The notes under the pieces are model-generated. The model was not told where the DNA came from. It saw nothing but the letters and a program-made list of their open reading frames with translations, and searched no databases. Positions 23,216 through 38,906 of a DNA stretch of 64,000 bases are shown piece by piece. The stretch is taken from contig JBGQLV010000006.1 of assembly GCA_041500225.1 (NCBI GenBank), positions 8,271 through 72,270 of the forward strand, written 5' to 3'. Source of the stretch: Thermodesulfovibrionia bacterium (GTDB lineage: Bacteria > Nitrospirota > Thermodesulfovibrionia > Thermodesulfovibrionales > SM23-35). Made by a program: the position numbers and the translations under genes. The stretch's first letter is position 1; each line of letters starts with the position of its first letter.

Positions 23216-24313
23216 ATGAAGAGGATTGTTGTAAAGATAGGCAGTAATATAATTGCCTATGGAAAAGAAGGACTTGATACAAAAAGAATCTCATCTATAG
23301 CACGCGAAATAGCTGAACTGCACAATACCGGATATGACGTAGTCATTGTCTCATCAGGTGCTATTGCTGCAGGTATGAAAAAACTCGGGTTAAAGGGAAA
23401 ACCGAAAGATATAAAACTCAAACAGGCTGCGGCAGCAATCGGCCAGAGCAGTCTAATATGGGCTTATGAAAGAAGTTTTGGAGATTATGGGAAAAAGGTA
23501 GCACAGGTGTTACTTACACGTGATGATTTTTCTGATAGAAAAAAATATATTAACTCTAAAAACACTCTCCTTACATTGCTTTCATACGGGATTGTTCCAA
23601 TAATAAATGAGAATGATACCGTTGCAACTGATGAGATAAAATTTGGCGACAATGATTATCTTGCATCTCTCGTTGCAGGTATTATAGAGGCTGAGAGGCT
23701 TATAGTCCTTTCAGATGTTGATGGGCTTTATACCGAGGATCCGCGACATAGTGAAAAGGCAAAGATTATCGAATACGTTGAGGAAATAACACCTGAACTT
23801 GAGTTAAAGGCAGGCGGGGCAGGAAGTACAATAGGTACCGGGGGAATGTATTCAAAAATCCTTGCTGCAAAAAGAGCAGTAAGCCACGGTATTACAGTCC
23901 ATATTATCAGCGGGAAAAAAGATGGACTCCTGACATCTCTTATGGCAGGTAAGCACTGCGGTACTGTGTTTAATCCAAAAAAGGAAAAATTGTCTTCAAG
24001 AAAAGGATGGATTGCATACGGCAGTCGTTCAAAAGGGAGCCTTATCATAGATGAAGGTGCGGTGAAGGCCCTGATACATGGTGGTAAAAGCCTTCTTCCT
24101 TCGGGCATTATCTCTGTTGAAGGTAATTTTGAAACAGGTGATTCGGTCTATTGCCTTGATTCAAAAGGAAACCGTATTGCTAAAGGCCTGATCAATTATT
24201 CCTCTCCCGAGATTGAGAAGATAAAGGGAAGAAAGACTTCAGAGATTGAAAAGATCCTTGGATATAAATACTCTGACGAGGCGATACACAGAGATAATTT
24301 AGTGTTGCTGTAG
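23216..24313 (+). CDS. proB: glutamate 5-kinase
   Basis: Amino-acid kinase fold (VVKIGSN, VSSGAIAAG) plus a C-terminal PUA domain. Confidence 0.9.
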   Translation: MKRIVVKIGSNIIAYGKEGLDTKRISSIAREIAELHNTGYDVVIVSSGAIAAGMKKLGLKGKPKDIKLKQAAAAIGQSSLIWAYERSFGDYGKKVAQVLLTRDDFSDRKKYINSKNTLLTLLSYGIVPIINENDTVATDEIKFGDNDYLASLVAGIIEAERLIVLSDVDGLYTEDPRHSEKAKIIEYVEEITPELELKAGGAGSTIGTGGMYSKILAAKRAVSHGITVHIISGKKDGLLTSLMAGKHCGTVFNPKKEKLSSRKGWIAYGSRSKGSLIIDEGAVKALIHGGKSLLPSGIISVEGNFETGDSVYCLDSKGNRIAKGLINYSSPEIEKIKGRKTSEIEKILGYKYSDEAIHRDNLVLL

Positions 24314-24442
24314 TTTGAGAGAAGATTCGCTCACAATGGCGGTGTCAAGTTAGACCCGCGGGTTGCATTAATAATCTATTCAATTTTTTTATAGCATTTA
24401 TTTCCATTTCATGATAATATTTTTAACTAAAAAGGTGTGATA

Positions 24443-24586
24443 GTGAAATTGAAGATTTTAGCATTAATTATTTCTCTTTTAATTTTTACTGGTTGTGCCA
24501 CTTATAAATATCAACCTGAATCTTGTTATCCTTATGCAGCATACAGAGGTTATGCCGGCCCCCATTGCTCTCCCTCAGCTCCTTAA
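24443..24586 (+). CDS. small putative lipoprotein (47 aa, below the ORF-track cutoff)
   Basis: GTG start after AAAGG. VKLKILALIISLLIFTGC is a signal peptide with a lipobox-like FTGC. Cys/Tyr-rich mature part. Confidence 0.35.
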   Translation: MKLKILALIISLLIFTGCATYKYQPESCYPYAAYRGYAGPHCSPSAP

Positions 24587-25071
24587 TCAATAATCTAAAG
24601 GGCCTTTTAGTGCAATAAGAATGAGATAGGGGTCATTTCGGTGTCAGGTCTGGCAATCATGCATTTATATTCAATAAAAATTCGCCAATGCCAATTGATT
24701 TTATTGGCGGACTCAACGGGATTCGTTCCGACTAATGTCGGGATTAGCCTTGAGAGCATGCTTTGAACAATTTTTGTAAAGGGGCTTCTGTCAACGGTCT
24801 GGGCATAACTTATCGATTTAACAGAGAATTCACAGATCTATATTTTTATATAATTTCCTGTATTTTCTGCCCTTTCAGATATATTCTGCTACAAATCTGC
24901 TACATTTTTTCTGAGCCTTTAACAATGCTAAAACAGACTATCGCAAAAATTATTTTATTATTCTGCTACAATTGTCCACATGGAAGGCGTTTCATACTTC
25001 CTGAAAGCCGCACCTATGATATACTTTATAAAAATACAGACTATAAGTGGTAATCAATTCAAGAGCGGATT

Positions 25072-25329
25072 ATGAAGAAAATATTGGATACAGTAGTTTT
25101 TGGTGAATATACTGCAGAAGATGTGTTAATTGTTGCCGGAGTTGTGATTGCATTATTGATAATCTTTCGAATACTAATGAGAGTTTTCAAAAAACAAGAA
25201 AGCAGTCAATACGTCCAGTTAGCTGATTGTCTGAACTGTGGTTGGCACGGAAAAGTTAGCAAGCTTGCAGGGCGATGTCCTAAATGTAACCAACCTTTAG
25301 GGGATCAGAAAGCACGTCGGATGAAATAG
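25072..25329 (+). CDS. small membrane-anchored zinc-ribbon protein
   Basis: One TM helix (VLIVAGVVIALLIIFRIL), then CLNC-x15-CPKC. Confidence 0.45.
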   Translation: MKKILDTVVFGEYTAEDVLIVAGVVIALLIIFRILMRVFKKQESSQYVQLADCLNCGWHGKVSKLAGRCPKCNQPLGDQKARRMK

Positions 25330-25496
25330 AATAGGAACGTTATGATATCGGCTTCTTCCTGTAATCGTGAATTTTATATTTCTCCTCACAATGCAATATT
25401 ACAATCAATAATCAATAAAAAATACAAATTTACTTTCTCCAACTTGGGTAGGATTGATTGTACGGTCAAAATTCCCAGAAGAAGGCAAATAAAAAG

Positions 25497-25510
25497 GGGT
25501 CAAATCTTTA
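25497..25510. repeat. left inverted repeat flanking the RAYT-like gene
   Basis: GGGGTCAAATCTTT, the exact reverse complement of 26530-26543. Confidence 0.9.
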
Positions 25511-25513
25511 CAA

Positions 25514-25543
25514 TTGACATATTTAATTGAGAAATGCTATAAA
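25514..25543 (+). promoter_or_regulatory. candidate promoter of the RAYT-like gene
   Basis: TTGACA (25514-25519), an 18-nt spacer, then TATAAA (25538-25543). The ATG is only 7 nt further on with no RBS, so the mRNA may be leaderless. Confidence 0.3.
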
Positions 25544-25549
25544 TGATGC

Positions 25550-26530
25550 ATGGCGAGGCCGTTAAGGATACAGTATCCCGGAGCTGTATACCATGTGACT
25601 TCCAGGGGTAACGAAAGAAAGGAGATATTTAGGGATGATAAAGACCGGCAAACCTTTCTTGAAATCCTTTCGCAATCCATAAGGATTTATAACATAAAAC
25701 CTTACAGTTATGTCCTCATGGGTAATCATTTTCACTTTCTTTTAGAGACACCGTTGGGTAATCTTGGTGAATTCATGCGACATTTCAATATAACCTATAC
25801 GGGATATTTTAATCGGAGACACAGAAGAGTAGGGCATCTATATCAGGGCAGGTACAAAAGTATTTTGGTGAATAAAGACGAATATTTATCCATACTGTCA
25901 AGATATATACATCTCAATCCTGTCAGGCTAAAAAACATGAGGAAGGAACCGGAGATCGAAAAAGTGGAATATCTTGTAAACTACCGATGGAGCAGTCTTC
26001 CTGGATATATAAAGAGAGGGAAAAGGGAGGAATTCATAGATTATGAGATGGTATTGGAAGAATATGGGGGAGATAATGCCAGGGGAAGAAAAATATACAA
26101 AAACAGAATATATTCAGATATAAAAGAGGGGATTGAGATAAAAGACAAAGTAATAGGTCAAAGCATCTTGGGTGGAGAAGAATTCGTAGAATGGATTAAG
26201 GAGAGATTTCTAAAAGGAAGGCAGGATAGAGAGAGTCCATCTTTAAGAGAACTGAAGAGATACCGTGCAAAAGAAGTGATAATGAAGGCAATAGAAAAAG
26301 TAACTGGGAAAAGCCTTGAAGAGATAAAGGCATCAAAGGGAAGACTTAGGCAGATTGCAACGGATTTATTATATCGGATAGGAGGTTTAAAGGGTGTAGA
26401 AATAGGAAATTTAATGGGAGTGGATTATAGCACAGTGAGTCAGGGGAGAAAGAGGTTAAGGGGTAAAATGCAAAAAGATAAGAGCTTGCGAGAGATGGTG
26501 AGTAAGATTGAAAGGAATTTGTCAATTTAA
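25550..26530 (+). CDS. IS200/RAYT-like Y1 (HUH) transposase with C-terminal DnaA-domain-IV-like HTH
   Basis: YHVTSRGNERKEIF, HUH motif in MGNHFHFLL, and the catalytic Tyr region GHLYQGRYKS, as in COG1943/REP-associated tyrosine transposases. The C-terminal ~90 aa resemble the DnaA C-terminal HTH (from memory). Confidence 0.8.
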   Translation: MARPLRIQYPGAVYHVTSRGNERKEIFRDDKDRQTFLEILSQSIRIYNIKPYSYVLMGNHFHFLLETPLGNLGEFMRHFNITYTGYFNRRHRRVGHLYQGRYKSILVNKDEYLSILSRYIHLNPVRLKNMRKEPEIEKVEYLVNYRWSSLPGYIKRGKREEFIDYEMVLEEYGGDNARGRKIYKNRIYSDIKEGIEIKDKVIGQSILGGEEFVEWIKERFLKGRQDRESPSLRELKRYRAKEVIMKAIEKVTGKSLEEIKASKGRLRQIATDLLYRIGGLKGVEIGNLMGVDYSTVSQGRKRLRGKMQKDKSLREMVSKIERNLSI

Positions 26531-26543
26531 AAGATTTGACCCC
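26530..26543. repeat. right inverted repeat flanking the RAYT-like gene
   Basis: AAAGATTTGACCCC. It overlaps the stop codon. Confidence 0.9.
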
Positions 26544-26575
26544 ATGTTCCCCTTGTTGACCCCATGTTCCCCTTG
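26536..26575 (+). repeat. perfect 20-bp tandem duplication (TTGACCCCATGTTCCCCTTG x2)
   Basis: Read directly. The first unit overlaps the right inverted repeat. Confidence 0.95.
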
Positions 26576-27031
26576 TTCTTGCTGCCGGCGACGCTATTGT
26601 AGAAGTCGTTAATATCCCTCATAACGGAAAGAACCTCGGCACTATGCCGGTGGTGCTTATTGCCTTTTACACAGGAGAAATAGGTACACCCAACACGGTT
26701 ATGACGCCTACCGATCACTATGTGACAGCGTTAAAACATAATACGGGGCGTAAGATGCAGAGAAGAATGAGGAGGTTTGGGGGCAGGATATGATTTTAAC
26801 TTTATAGTTCTTTGTTTTCCAAAAAATCAATTACTTCAGGTTCAACAGATGCAATTACACTTCAACTAAGCCAGTCTGGGAATTCCGTGACAGGCACACA
26901 TTCAGCCTGACACTATTGTTGTTGCTCGGAATCTATTACTTTGTCTAATGTTGCCGGAAGGCCGAGTTTTGACACACAAATTATTTTTTTGATGATAAAA
27001 ACTGTGTTAACATCTCAATTATGAAAAGTTC

Positions 27032-29608
27032 CTAAGAGCTGATCTTCTTCTTAATCTCAATAAGTTTATTAAGCGCATCTTCTGGTTTAAGCTGTTTTAA
27101 ATCCAGATTTTTGATTTCTGTAATTACAGATTCTGTCACAGAAGAGAAGAGGTCAAGCTGGACCGTGCCTTTCTTCGTTTTCCTGTCTGCAAACCTTGGC
27201 CTGCCTGTCTCATTCAGCTCCTCTTTTTCGAGATTGGCAAGCACCTCCTTTGCCCTTTTTATGATGCTATCAGGAAGCCCTGCTAATCTTGCTACCTGTA
27301 TGCCGTAACTTTTGTCAGCAGGACCCTTTTCAATCTTTCTTAAAAATATAATCTCATCACCCCATTCTTTTACTGATACATTATAGTTCCTGACACCATC
27401 GTGAGTAAGGCTGAGTTCGGTTAGCTCGTTATAGTGTGTTGCAAAGAGTGTCCTTGCATTTATCTCGTTTAAGATATGTTCTGCAACAGCCCAGGCAATG
27501 CTTATACCGTCAAATGTGCTTGTGCCCCTTCCTACCTCGTCGAGAAGTATGAGACTTTTAGCGGTTGCATTGTGTGTGATGTTTGCTACCTCTATCATCT
27601 CTACCATGAAGGTGCTCTGACCTTTTGTAAGGAAATCAGATGCGCCTATCCTTGTAAAAATCCTGTCAGCAATCCCTATCTTCGCATCAGATGCAGGGAC
27701 GAAGCTCCCAATTTGTGCCATGATAACTATAAGTGCAATTTGCCTCATGGATGTGGATTTCCCAGCCATATTCGGGCCTGTAATTATAAGGAGACGGTCG
27801 TTTTCGTTATCCATAAAAATGCTGTTTGGTATAAACCTTTCATCCATTGGTATTCTTTCGAGGACAGGATGCCTCCCGTCTGTTATATCGATTACCCCGG
27901 TTTCATCTACAGTAGGCTTTATATAGTTATACCTTTTTGCAACAACGGCAAGCGAGGCAAGAAAATCAACGATTGAGACGGCTGAAGCTGTTTTTGACAG
28001 AAGTGCAGATTCTTTTTGTATATCATCGAGTATTTCCTGAAAGAGCTGGTACTCAAGATTCTTAAGTCTTTCTTCAGCTCCGAGGATACTTGTCTCATAT
28101 TCTTTAAGTTCCGGGGTTATAAACCTTTCTCCCCCCACAAGTGTCTGTTTTCTGATGTAATCGTCCGGGACCATATGGAGATTTGCTTTTGTGACCTCGA
28201 TATAGTAACCATAGACCCGGTTATATCTGACTTTCAGGGAAGATATACCTGTCCTTTGTTTTTCCTTTTGCTCCAGCTCTGCAATAAAGTCCTTACCTTT
28301 TGTAGATATGTTCCTGATCTCGTCTAAATCAGTATTATATCCAGACTTGATAATCCCACCGTCTCTGAGGCTTATCGGAGGATTATCAACAATACTTTTC
28401 TCTATTAATTTAATGAGGGCTGAAAATTCGGATATCTCCTCTGAAATTGAGCTTAGATAAGGATTTTTAGAAGAGCCAAGAGATTTCTTGATCTTTGGCA
28501 GGTATGATACGGAATTTTTGATTGCTAAAAGATCCCTCGCATTTGCACTCTTTGAACCAACCTTTGCAGAAAGCCTTTCGAGGTCCTGTATTTTCCGCAG
28601 AGACGTCCTGAAATCTTCAAGCAGCTCGTAGTCTTCTACAAGATATTCAACTGCATCCCGCCTCTTTTTTATTTCATGGATATTAATAAGAGGTTTCAAG
28701 ATGGAGGCCCTTAAGAACCTTCCGCCCATAGGGGTAAGTGTTTCATCAAGGACCCAGAGAAGCGTGCCTTCGTTTGAGCTATCCTTAAAATTGTGAGTGA
28801 GTTCAAGGTTGCGCTGTGTTGCTGCATCTAAAAACATATAAGAATCCTGTCTCAAAGTAGTTATCTTTTTAAAACTTAATGTTTCCTTCTGTGTATCCTC
28901 AAGGTAACTGATTAGTGCCCCGGCAGCAGAGATTGCAGCAGTCATGCCATCGCATCCATAACCGTCAAGAGAAGAGACCCTTAAATGCTTCAGTAAAGTC
29001 TTATATGCCTCTGAATAATCAAAATACCAATCATCATAAACAGATATATAAAAGTTATTGAGAGACTCTTTATAGTGGATATTGTCCTTGAGACTATGGG
29101 GGATCAGGATTTCTCTTGGTTCAAACCTGTACATCTCATCCTCAATATTTTCAGCTGTTTCATAAACGATAAACTCTCCTGTAGAGATATCGACTGCTGC
29201 TATGCCGTGCTTGCCTCCAGAGGAAAACAGGCTTATGATATAAGAGTTTTCTTTAGGGTTTTCGGGTGCATGTGTTCCAGGTGTAATTACCTTTACAATA
29301 TCCCTCTGGACAATGCCTTTTGCCTCTTTTGGGTCTTCTAACTGTTCGCAAATTGCAACCTTAAATCCTGCTTTAATCAGCTTTGATATATAACCTTCTG
29401 ATGCAAAGTAAGGGATACCGCACATAGGTACAGGCTCTTCCTTTGATTTATCCCTTGTTGTGAGCGCTATCTGCAGTATCTTGGATGCCTTCTCTGCATC
29501 CTCTCCAAACATTTCGTAAAAATCTCCAAGCCTGAAAAAGACAATTGCGTCTTTGTATCTTTCTTTGATGCTTAAGTATTGTTTCATCAAGGGGGTTATT
29601 TCTGACAT
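27032..29608 (-). CDS. mutS: DNA mismatch repair protein MutS
   Basis: N-terminal mismatch-binding start (TPLMKQY), Walker A GPNMAGKST, STFMVEM, and full MutS length. Confidence 0.95.
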   Translation of the reverse strand: MSEITPLMKQYLSIKERYKDAIVFFRLGDFYEMFGEDAEKASKILQIALTTRDKSKEEPVPMCGIPYFASEGYISKLIKAGFKVAICEQLEDPKEAKGIVQRDIVKVITPGTHAPENPKENSYIISLFSSGGKHGIAAVDISTGEFIVYETAENIEDEMYRFEPREILIPHSLKDNIHYKESLNNFYISVYDDWYFDYSEAYKTLLKHLRVSSLDGYGCDGMTAAISAAGALISYLEDTQKETLSFKKITTLRQDSYMFLDAATQRNLELTHNFKDSSNEGTLLWVLDETLTPMGGRFLRASILKPLINIHEIKKRRDAVEYLVEDYELLEDFRTSLRKIQDLERLSAKVGSKSANARDLLAIKNSVSYLPKIKKSLGSSKNPYLSSISEEISEFSALIKLIEKSIVDNPPISLRDGGIIKSGYNTDLDEIRNISTKGKDFIAELEQKEKQRTGISSLKVRYNRVYGYYIEVTKANLHMVPDDYIRKQTLVGGERFITPELKEYETSILGAEERLKNLEYQLFQEILDDIQKESALLSKTASAVSIVDFLASLAVVAKRYNYIKPTVDETGVIDITDGRHPVLERIPMDERFIPNSIFMDNENDRLLIITGPNMAGKSTSMRQIALIVIMAQIGSFVPASDAKIGIADRIFTRIGASDFLTKGQSTFMVEMIEVANITHNATAKSLILLDEVGRGTSTFDGISIAWAVAEHILNEINARTLFATHYNELTELSLTHDGVRNYNVSVKEWGDEIIFLRKIEKGPADKSYGIQVARLAGLPDSIIKRAKEVLANLEKEELNETGRPRFADRKTKKGTVQLDLFSSVTESVITEIKNLDLKQLKPEDALNKLIEIKKKISS

Positions 29609-30691: not shown

Positions 30692-30775
30692 GTCATTCCC
30701 TCGAAAGCGGGAATCCAGTGTATCGTGGGGTGACGAACCGCCAGTACTGGATTCCGGGTCAAGCCCGGAATGACA
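30692..30775. repeat. GTCATTCC...GGAATGAC double-hairpin element, copy A
   Basis: GTCATTCCC-TCGAAAGC-GGGAATCCAG ... CTGGATTCCGGG-TCAAG-CCCGGAATGAC. Shares termini and CCAG/CTGG joints with copies at 44515-44588 and 51136-51204. Confidence 0.85.
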
Positions 30776-38817: not shown

Positions 38818-38906
38818 AGAACTCGTGAAGGGGTCAAATCTTTGATATTGACAAATATGTCACAGATAAAGATTTGACCCCATTCCCTGTTTTCTTCTCG
38901 AGTTCT
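38818..38906. repeat. gene-less hairpin copy (REPIN-like) of the RAYT-flanking inverted repeats
   Basis: GGGGTCAAATCTTT (38830-38843) and AAAGATTTGACCCC (38868-38881), with a 24-nt loop. Outer stem AGAACTCG (38818-38825) / CGAGTTCT (38899-38906). Confidence 0.85.

Follow-up and report, generated by a model that had tools for sequence, protein, structure and literature searches.

The names TIRtron and TIRYT were introduced by Di Nocera, De Gregorio and Rocco (2013, BMC Genomics 14:522; PMC3733652) and describe a RAYT-like Y1 HUH gene, the TIRYT, framed by long inverted repeats (TIRs) instead of REPs. The motif at the outer end of the TIR is GGGGWSAS, and in some hosts TIR families occur as singles, dimers and clusters (PMC3733652). 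In the classification of Quentin, Siguier, Chandler and Fichant (2018, BMC Genomics 19:475; PMC6006769), proteins of subclass 2.1 carry the motifs NH[YF]H, FQ/W[EQ] and Y[IV]HLNP, and those of subclass 2.1.2 have a C-terminus resembling Bac_DnaA_C, HTH_23 or HTH_28. No REPs were found around subclass 2.1 genes (PMC6006769). As a rule, RAYTs behave as domesticated genes do, and Group 1 is one of the RAYT groups that most resemble insertion sequences (Bertels et al., 2017; PMC5581495). REP-associated 16-mers reach tens to hundreds of copies genome-wide, with 57 and 140 for RAYT Groups 2 and 3 (PMC5581495).

Two other known systems are related to these elements. The nearest solved structure is that of Escherichia coli TnpA_REP (PDB 4ER8; Messing et al., 2012; PMC3479197), a protein of 165 aa without an HTH tail, which is encoded by a single-copy domesticated gene in the company of hundreds of REPs and reads a GTAG foot and an imperfect hairpin within one REP. 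The IS200/IS605 elements (IS608, ISDra2) resemble the present locus in the Y1 HUH fold, single-strand chemistry and absence of target-site duplications. Their asymmetric subterminal hairpins, lack of TIRs, TnpA of ~150 aa with a Y..NQ motif, frequent tnpB and usually several identical copies are features that the present locus does not share.

We analysed a locus in a 64,000-nucleotide stretch of DNA (the window) and propose, with a probability of roughly 0.7, that the unit at 25496-26543 is a TIRtron: an IS-like, single-strand-route transposon with one TIRYT gene, TIRs of ~24-28 bp with a GGGGTCA tip, and a leaderless, TIR-embedded promoter (Table 1). Like the described TIRtrons, it has a RAYT-like Y1 HUH gene framed by long TIRs, arms at constant distances from the gene, the 3′ one overlapping the end of the ORF, and a genome with moderately abundant TIR families and several TIRYT genes, each with its own TIR. 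We found no essential difference between the present copy and the TIRtrons of Di Nocera et al. (2013). Beyond that description, it adds an A rather than S at the last motif position, the −35 of a putative leaderless promoter within the arm, a ~34-fold hot spot of tip duplications and an uncultured host.

Table 1. Features of the putative TIRtron and associated sequences in the window.
Feature	Position	Strand	Basis or remark
TIR-L, GGGGTCAAATCTTTACAATTGACA	25496..25519	+	outer 14 nt perfect; inner part with −35 hexamer
Candidate promoter: −35 TTGACA (25514-25519), 18-nt spacer, TG-extended −10 TGcTATAAA (hexamer 25538-25543)	25514..25543	+	
TIRYT gene, 326 aa	25550..26530	+	Pfam, profile searches, AF2 model, Foldseek
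Predicted TIRYT protein layout: N-terminal Y1 HUH nuclease (H60-F-H62, Y119, N123), helical middle with conserved RWSS motif, C-terminal DnaA-domain-IV-like HTH (~230-326)			
Stop codon TAA of TIRYT gene	26528-26530	+	
TIR-R, reverse complement = GGGGTCAAATCTTTTAAATTGACA	26520..26543	-	codes last protein residues (NLSI*); overlaps stop
Perfect tandem duplication, 2 x 20 nt (TTGACCCCATGTTCCCCTTG x2): last 8 nt of TIR-R plus 12 nt of flank	26536..26575	+	exact repeat
3′ remnant of Cupin_2 gene abutting right end of element	26582..26790	+	90% identity over 207 nt to C69
Gene-less 52-bp TIR dimer, arms head to head, 14-bp stem plus inner 5-bp stem	38830..38881	.	

The TIRYT gene and its predicted protein

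The first-pass annotation of the window had described a 326-aa Y1/HUH gene, and both the ORF and its NHFHFLL motif are present. The protein matches Pfam Y1_Tnp (3.9e-12) and scores 64.7 bits against NCBIfam REP_Tyr_transpos, which is under the cut-off of 80. A PDB search with the single sequence gave no match, and profiles were required: the TIRYT profile matched TnpA_REP (4er8) at 1.4e-5 with the HUH and tyrosine motifs aligned. This structure was also the top Foldseek match of the AF2 model (pLDDT 91.9; TM 0.72 on the target), with the IS608 and ISDra2 TnpA proteins also among the fold matches. In the profile alignment, the HUH histidines H59 and H61, the metal-binding N119 and the catalytic Y115 of TnpA_REP (PMC3479197) correspond to H60, H62, N123 and Y119 of the TIRYT, the latter within RYIHLNP. 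H60, H62 and N123 are invariant in 32 homologs and Y119 is conserved in at least 90% of them. As judged from these alignments, the catalytic residues of the TIRYT are intact. The catalytic tyrosine had originally been placed in HLYQGRYKS; the peptide is present, but its HLYQGRY part lines up with the W/FQ motif NIWQPRFW, which is not catalytic, and the assignment moves to Y119 of YIHLNP.

A C-terminal HTH resembling domain IV of DnaA had been proposed as well, and here profiles and structure agree with the proposal. The Bac_DnaA_C-like tail reached only 0.0054 in a single-sequence Pfam search, which is under the cut-off. The profile matched DnaA (2hcb, 2.6e-8; 1j1v, 1.9e-6), and the model superposes on 3pvp, the DNA-binding domain of DnaA, with a TM of 0.80 and an rmsd of 1.6 Å. 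This tail and the length of 326 aa distinguish the protein from TnpA_REP.

Profile alignments and the predicted fold identify the protein as a RAYT-like (class 2) Y1 HUH enzyme and not an IS200 TnpA. Its motifs (NHFH at 59-62; YQ at 98-99, which is FQ in paralogs; YIHLNP at 119-124) include a Y motif of the class 2 type Y---NP rather than Y..NQ. NHFH, YQ/FQ and YIHLNP are also the motifs of subclass 2.1.2, with which the locus further shares a long protein, a conserved WSS region, the Bac_DnaA_C-like HTH tail and the absence of nearby REPs. In both, genomes carry several diverged copies and some near-identical duplicates, and the distribution is wide and patchy. We assign the TIRYT, by motifs and architecture, to TnpA_Y1 subclass 2.1.2. 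It is probably also a Group 1 RAYT, following a table of Quentin et al. (PMC6006769) that equates Group 1 with subclass 2.1.

Conserved arms and an embedded candidate promoter

A perfect 14-bp inverted repeat flanks the gene, with GGGGTCAAATCTTT at 25496-25509 and its reverse complement at 26530-26543. The repeat had been noticed in the first-pass annotation, with the left copy at 25497-25510; this copy lies one base further left, while the right coordinates hold, including the overlap with the stop codon, whose final base the right 14-mer shares. The 14 bp are part of a longer repeat of ~24-28 bp, in which the left arm GGGGTCAAATCTTTACAATTGACATATT and the reverse complement of the right arm GGGGTCAAATCTTTTAAATTGACAAATT agree at 22/24 and 25/28 positions. 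The window contains five matches to the 14-mer with up to two mismatches versus 0.68 expected, a number reached in 0/100 shuffles. There are 6 exact copies in the 2.7-Mb genome, including the 52-bp dimer described below and additional copies on C1 and C16 beyond those listed in the first-pass annotation, and 13 copies with one mismatch. All TIR subfamilies of the genome together amount to ~58 arms, including 91-bp dimers and tandem pairs. The tip GGGGTCAA fits GGGGWSAS at 7/8 positions, with A at the final S, and the tip GGGGTCAG, found in the paralogs and in the majority of the 57 other loci described below, fits at 8/8.

Similar arms frame homologous genes in distant phyla. We compared 78 homologous loci from NC10, Planctomycetota, Desulfobacterota, Acidobacteriota, Omnitrophota, Gammaproteobacteria and others, and 57 of them had GGGGTCA-tipped arms. 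In most homologous loci the left arm precedes the ATG by ~50-56 nt, and in the 57 the right tip lies ~4-64 nt beyond the stop, most commonly at ~4 nt. Each full-length paralog in the genome also has its own GGGGTCA-tipped arm pair at the same distances. Five orthologs with 41-57% amino acid identity (L022, L024, L025, L029 and L050) have the exact GGGGTCAAATCTTT in both arms, another (L027) retains 13/14 of its positions and one (L023) retains it in the left arm only. Furthermore, the ortholog of G007 (71%) has GGGGTCAATTCTTT in both arms, an AAT to ATT change made in concert. At the sequence level, the arms change together with the protein lineage, and their conservation far exceeds that of the protein. 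By the same comparison, the inverted repeats belong to the TIRYT gene.

The left arm also contributes to a candidate promoter (Table 1). The earlier description of TTGACA and TATAAA separated by 18 nt, with no RBS, is correct, and 6 nt lie between the −10 hexamer and the ATG. We found no Shine-Dalgarno or GGAGG-like motif before the ATG. A consensus promoter scan did not list the site because TATAAA breaks the scan's rule of a T at position 6. With the −10 ending only 6 nt before the ATG, the TIRYT mRNA is predicted to be leaderless, the position of the −10 giving the putative transcript start. The geometry that had suggested a leaderless message is conserved: the −10 ends 5-8 nt before the start codon in three paralogs (C62, C10 and C66) and four orthologs (L024, L029, L031 and G007), and loci with a longer leader carry a Shine-Dalgarno sequence instead.

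Sister elements, dimers and tip duplications

Mobility, cleavage, binding and transposition of the element are activities that we infer. Copies of the C10-type element in the genome are 97-98% identical, end exactly at the tips and have unrelated flanks, and ends of the C62-type are found on three contig ends with 98-100% identity. The copies of these sister elements are bounded at the tips without target-site duplication. The 326-aa gene (C6-type) is single-copy, with no second copy above ~44% identity in a tblastn search of the genome, and blastn of the whole element against the genome recovered only short fragments of 71-75% identity, on C23 and C66. The C6-type gene was not found in a genome of the same genus (best match 39%), and it is present at 71% in another genus. 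Decayed fragments are numerous in relatives, and a patchy distribution is seen. The present copy is single in its genome and may be only rarely active.

The second pair of 14-mers noted in the first-pass annotation, at 38830-38843(+) and 38868-38881(-), is present and forms a gene-less dimer with a 24-nt spacer (Table 1). This 52-bp dimer, a miniature derivative of the element, folds as single-stranded DNA at -17.8 and -19.1 kcal/mol (z -5.5 and -6.6). Arm dimers in the genome range from 52 to 91 bp, with 91-bp dimers at C58 and C65. The one at C58 is absent from the orthologous intergenic spot in 4/4 relatives inspected (G001, G003, G010 and G013), with boundaries good to ~8 nt because the spacer is hypervariable. 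The presence/absence contrast was obtained from this dimer only: no clean filled-versus-empty pair was available for a full element because the flanks have no counterpart in relatives, as seen for the C10 and C36 elements in five of them. In the same-genus genome G001, purC sits beside the 3′ end of mutS, a break in synteny that leaves no clean empty site. A genome search for excision or sealed-donor footprints of the form GGGGTCA(N0-6)TGACCCC gave no credible site.

The cupin remnant at the right end of the element has an intact paralog at G000:C69:2296-1858(-) with a Pfam Cupin_2 match of 1.8e-14. A search of the DNA left of the element for the missing 5′ half did not find it. Rfam gave no match over 24300-27100.

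The 20-bp tandem duplication at the right end, another early observation, is exact and re-uses the last 8 nt of TIR-R. Such tip-plus-flank duplications occur at 28/172 TIR tips versus 29/6000 random positions, a ~34-fold enrichment. We also considered reading the nick site from them. After six spurious hits were set aside, the right edge fell after GGGGTCA in 18/26 genuine duplications, but this preference is an artefact because the search was anchored on GGTCA. In an unbiased scan, the duplication edges were spread over TIR positions 1-10, much like in the random-position controls. The enrichment of tip duplications stands and the cleavage position does not.

Alternative readings of the locus

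The alternative that survives best, though we consider it improbable, is domestication: the gene would be an immobile locus that the host recruited as a nuclease or regulator, and the arms would be its operator or binding sites rather than transposon ends. The single-copy state of the gene would fit this reading, as would the −35 inside the arm, the DnaA-type, duplex-binding HTH of the tail, the small number of 14-mer copies, 6 here and 2-30 in other hosts, and the domesticated-like behaviour of RAYTs generally (PMC5581495). However, regulation does not explain why an equally conserved arm is found at the 3′ end, in the coding tail. Nor does domestication explain the near-identical sisters bounded at the tips, the gene-less dimers at polymorphic sites, the decayed fragments, the truncated cupin gene and the patchy distribution.

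A classical REPtron, in which a RAYT is flanked by inverted REP palindromes dispersed in high copy number, is disfavoured and in our view very unlikely. The first-pass annotation had read the flanks as inverted REPs, and the kinship with TnpA_REP, the inverted arms at both gene ends and the existence of extra copies and dimers are consistent with this view. However, a single arm is not a palindrome, its folding does not exceed that of shuffled sequences (z -0.8 and +0.4), and the arms lack a GTAG or CGTC foot. A REP-like GTCAA..TTGAC hairpin inside a single arm was discarded, unsupported by folding and confounded with the −35 hexamer. The copy numbers given above (6 exact, ~58 arms overall) contrast with the tens to hundreds reported for REP-associated 16-mers (PMC5581495). 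The REP_Tyr_transpos score below cut-off and the absence of REPs near subclass 2.1 genes (PMC6006769) also argue against a REPtron. Unlike the REPs of TnpA_REP, the arms are non-palindromic, low-copy TIRs, in the TIRtron arrangement (PMC3733652).

An ordinary IS200/IS605 insertion sequence with an incidental inverted repeat has a negligible probability despite the Pfam Y1_Tnp match and the IS608 and ISDra2 fold matches, and was rejected on the type of Y motif (Y---NP, not Y..NQ), protein length and tail (326 aa plus HTH versus ~150 aa), copy number (only the short fragments on C23 and C66, and nothing above ~44% in tblastn) and the TIRs themselves, which are not incidental since they are kept in 57/78 homologous loci.

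A possible mechanism

If the element is a TIRtron, its HTH tail could recognise the arm as duplex DNA and place the HUH domain at the tip. In single-stranded DNA, such as that at a replication fork, the arms would pair with each other as a panhandle, or as a hairpin in the dimers, and Y119 would cut and rejoin one strand at both ends. Movement would follow a peel-and-paste, single-strand route like that of IS200/IS605 and REP/RAYT, with no target duplication. Transcription would proceed from the promoter with its −35 inside the left arm and its −10 six nt before the ATG to yield a leaderless mRNA, and the arm-bound protein might also repress its own promoter. In reading the arms, the Y1 enzyme would depart from the solved REP and IS608 complexes because the single arms have no significant hairpin. 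Binding of the HTH to the TIR is a guess because the TIR is unlike a DnaA box (PMC6006769).

A more speculative extension, which we regard as doubtful, is that TIRYTs recognise their ends in duplex form by means of the DnaA-type HTH and not as single-stranded hairpins. A single arm of 24-28 bp would then combine the roles of transposon end, operator and −35 element of a leaderless promoter, and the tip duplications could be the footprint of abortive strand transfer. If true, such end recognition would have no known precedent in the IS200/IS605-RAYT superfamily.

We know of no TIRYT or TIRtron member that has ever been tested at the bench. The present copy adds no new principle, and its comparative data offer a starting point for the first biochemistry of the family: a 14-mer kept across phyla at ~41-57% protein identity, concerted changes in the two arms, an arm-embedded candidate promoter and duplications at the tip boundary.

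Distribution of TIRtrons

The TIRtron reading accounts for a dispersed repeat family in the assembly, for several of its contig breaks and for the truncation of a cupin gene. It also bears on other genomes, as 26 of the 31 searched (this one and 30 relatives) carry TIRtrons, and one scan of representative genomes contained more than 554 TIRtron loci. The family is rare on plasmids (27/72,556 records, all with less than 60% identity). TIRtrons are very common and are routinely annotated just as "transposase".

Classification of the element and its arms

The tyrosine transposase gene and the arms that frame it form a unit that we read, with a probability of about 0.7, as an IS-like TIRtron. RAYT-like genes with long terminal inverted repeats (TIRs) instead of REPs have been named TIRYTs, and the whole units TIRtrons (Di Nocera et al., 2013; PMC3733652). 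They share the TIR motif GGGGWSAS, and their TIR families are moderately abundant as singles, dimers and clusters (PMC3733652). Most TIRYTs were assigned to TnpA_Y1 subclass 2.1, which has the motifs NH[YF]H, FQ and Y[IV]HLNP, a Bac_DnaA_C/HTH tail in group 2.1.2, and no REPs near its genes (Quentin et al., 2018; PMC6006769). The most IS-like RAYT groups are Group 1 and Group 6 (Bertels et al., 2017; PMC5581495). The present protein and arms match the descriptions of TIRtrons and TIRYTs, subclass 2.1 and Group 1 RAYTs feature by feature. The element is of an already described kind, to which this copy adds one more TIRtron.

Features of the element and its surroundings (window coordinates)
Feature	Position	Strand	Details
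Left arm 14-mer	25496-25509	+	GGGGTCAAATCTTT, exact
TIRYT ORF	25550..26530	+	326 aa
Right arm 14-mer	26530-26543	-	reverse complement of GGGGTCAAATCTTT; shares one base with TAA stop
20-nt tandem duplication	26536-26575		exact
Cupin_2 gene remnant, last third (3')	26582-26790		90% identical to intact paralog G000:C69:2296-1858(-)
Gene-less second inverted pair	38830-38881		52-bp arm dimer

The perfect 14-bp inverted repeat noted around the gene in the first-pass annotation is present, although its left arm lies one base to the left of where it had been placed. The window holds five matches to the 14-mer at two or fewer mismatches against 0.68 expected, a number that no shuffle reached. The match between the arms continues inward (GGGGTCAAATCTTTACAATTGACATATT versus GGGGTCAAATCTTTTAAATTGACAAATT, identical at 22/24 and 25/28 positions), so that the terminal inverted repeat actually spans ~24–28 bp, ATTGACA included. 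Single arms fold no better than shuffles (z -0.8 and +0.4); arm dimers, in which both arms stand head to head without the gene, fold strongly (z -5.5 to -9.8). The earlier reading of the locus as a RAYT flanked by inverted REPs, a strict REPtron, is not upheld and seems very improbable, as the single arms do not fold and the protein scores 64.7 bits with the NCBIfam REP-associated tyrosine transposase model, under its cut-off of 80. A plain IS200 element, which likewise fails the defining features tested, is more improbable still.

Protein domains and catalytic residues

Pfam recognizes a Y1_Tnp domain in the protein (3.9e-12) and Bac_DnaA_C below threshold only. The DnaA-domain-IV-like helix-turn-helix (HTH) proposed for the C-terminus is nonetheless there: a 32-sequence profile matched DnaA domain IV (2hcb, 2.6e-8; 1j1v, 1.9e-6), and the tail of an AlphaFold model (pLDDT 91.9, pTM 0.82) superposes on the DNA-binding domain of Mycobacterium tuberculosis DnaA (3pvp; TM 0.80, rmsd 1.6 Å). 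The model's best fold match is E. coli TnpA_REP (4er8; TM 0.72 on target), followed by the IS608 and ISDra2 TnpA proteins, and an N-terminal profile also matched 4er8 (1.4e-5). The catalytic tyrosine of TnpA_REP is Y115 and its metal ligands are H59, H61 and N119 (PMC3479197). In the alignment, NH(F)H 59–62 lies opposite E-H59-M-H61, in agreement with the HUH motif first assigned, and RY119IHLN123P lies opposite DY115IYIN119P. The HLYQGRYKS stretch had been taken for the catalytic motif; GHLYQGRY aligns with NIWQPRFW and corresponds to the non-catalytic W/FQ motif. Because Y119 lies opposite Y115 of TnpA_REP, the alignment identifies it as the catalytic tyrosine. All 32 homologs share H60, H62 and N123, and at least 90% of them have Y119.

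Copies and sister elements in the source genome

The source assembly (G000; 2.7 Mb, 141 contigs) contains six exact copies of the 14-mer, which are the two gene arms, both arms of the 52-bp dimer and, beyond these, one copy each on contigs C1 and C16; 13 sites match with one mismatch. An arm profile found ~58 copies, which fall into recognisable subfamilies. The genome encodes at least five long paralogs that are ~40% identical (C66, C10, C36, C62 and the present one), together with two shorter or divergent ones and several fragments. Each of the long paralogs is bracketed by an individual pair of GGGGTCA-tipped arms; the left tip (the arm's outer end) precedes the start by ~52–58 nt, and the right one lies at the stop. 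The C10-type element has 97–98% identical copies on other contigs, with boundaries exactly at the tips, unrelated flanks and no flanking direct repeat, and C62-type ends lie on three contig ends (98–100%). Dimers of 91 bp occur at C58 and C65, and that at C58 is absent from the orthologous intergenic spacer in all four relatives inspected (G001, G003, G010 and G013). Sealed-donor palindromes were not found in G000.

In L014 (G000:C1:77253-78290), a divergent Y1 paralog with ~32–34% identity, the two flanking copies (31/33) of CCCATTTCCGCTCAAAGCACTTTTGGGTAAGAA are in direct rather than inverted orientation; the genome has no others, and each can form a TACCCA/TGGGTA stem. The short-form paralog L013 (G000:C49:3825-4493; 222 aa) has no HTH tail and carries GGGGACATCATACTTAATTCTTGAC and its inverse as arms. 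At G000:C23:23388-23570, a second-element remnant retains the final 54 codons, interrupted by one stop, and the right arm AGGGTCAATTCTTTCATATTGACA; it is of the type found in relative G007 (arms ATT, not AAT), with a matching solo arm at C20:26303.

Distribution beyond the source genome

A scan of representative genomes recovered more than 554 loci encoding relatives in many phyla, and 57 of the 78 examined share this arrangement, with an arm (G)GGGTCARRYCT... upstream of the gene and the inverted sequence at the stop codon. At five loci (L022, L024, L025, L029 and L050) the protein is only 41–57% identical, yet these orthologs have GGGGTCAAATCTTT exact in both arms; L027 matches it at 13 of 14 positions, and in L023 only the left arm has the 14-mer. 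The G007 ortholog (71%) comes from a different genus within the source organism's family; both of its arms read GGGGTCAATTCTTT, a concerted change. TIRYT paralogs, many of them broken, occur in 26 of 31 genomes (the source and 30 relatives), and the best match to the present protein in the same-genus genome is only 39% identical. Matches on plasmids are rare (27 of 72,556 records).

The main alternative, which we consider unlikely, is that the gene has been domesticated and is immobile, its product acting as a nuclease or regulator and the arms at either end serving as binding sites. Five host genomes with the same 14-mer arm carry 5 to 30 copies at no more than one mismatch, inverted dimers and tandem pairs among them; the flanking pair provides the only exact copies in two of the five.

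Local context and tip duplications

The perfect 20-bp duplication reported past the right repeat is exact and precedes the Cupin_2 remnant. The remnant has lost its stop, and its frame therefore continues for ~25 codons. Its missing 5' part was not found left of the element, and in same-genus genome G001 purC adjoins the mutS 3' end instead. Together, these flanks point to a history of insertion or adjacent deletion rather than to an ancient resident locus. At the G001 site occupied by purC in place of the TIRtron and cupin remnant (L002, G001:C57, 1338-1500, beside the mutS 3' end) lies a ~70-nt double-hairpin repeat (..GTCATTCCCG..GGAATCCAG..CTGGATTCC..GGAATGAC..). This separate family is abundant, with more than 40 places in G000, and also occurs at window position 30692 and elsewhere. 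A 31-mer, TTCTTAGGGCCGCTTGGGGTCATGATCAACC, sits 60–210 nt from five contig ends (G000:C9, C43, C69, C71 and C129); it probably represents one end of a different multi-copy element, at which the assembly breaks.

Perfect short tandem duplications cross the arm's outer boundary at 28 of 172 tips, the window's 20-mer pair among them, versus 29 of 6000 random positions put through the same scoring (~34-fold). A fixed breakpoint after GGGGTCA was rejected as an artefact of search anchoring, and no cleavage site is readable from these duplications. L013 also has a tandem tip duplication (CCCTGGAATCAA twice), and G000:C103:3137-3246 is an extreme case, with five tandem 22-nt units of GGGGGTCAGGTCACGAATCTTT directly before a TIR-like end.

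Promoter candidate and proposed mechanism

The promoter candidate proposed earlier, without a ribosome-binding site, is present: TTGACA, within the arm, is followed by 18 nt, TGcTATAAA, 6 nt and the ATG, with no Shine-Dalgarno sequence. Placement of the start codon follows from the MAR..R N-terminus, which is invariant. Paralogs C62 (TTGACA-17-TATAAT-6-GTG), C10 and C66 share the promoter geometry, as do orthologs L024, L029, L031 and G007: in each, the -10 element ends 5–8 nt ahead of the start codon. Homologs with the arm more than 75 nt upstream have GGAGG-like sites instead. This recurrent geometry, together with the GGAGG-like sites of long-leader homologs, makes a leaderless mRNA, with the transcript start it implies, a well-supported inference. 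A consensus promoter scan did not list the candidate site.

What the data show directly are the domains, the conserved catalytic residues, the association of arms with protein, copies bounded by the tips, the dimers and the truncated neighbouring gene. As a TIRtron, the unit would have its arms recognized by the HTH tail, and the Y1 HUH domain would cut and rejoin one strand near the tips, with the arms paired in single-stranded DNA. Such strand exchange could mobilise the unit, and its gene-less dimers too, and would leave no target duplication. The arm would double as promoter carrier and, probably, as operator for a predicted autoregulation.
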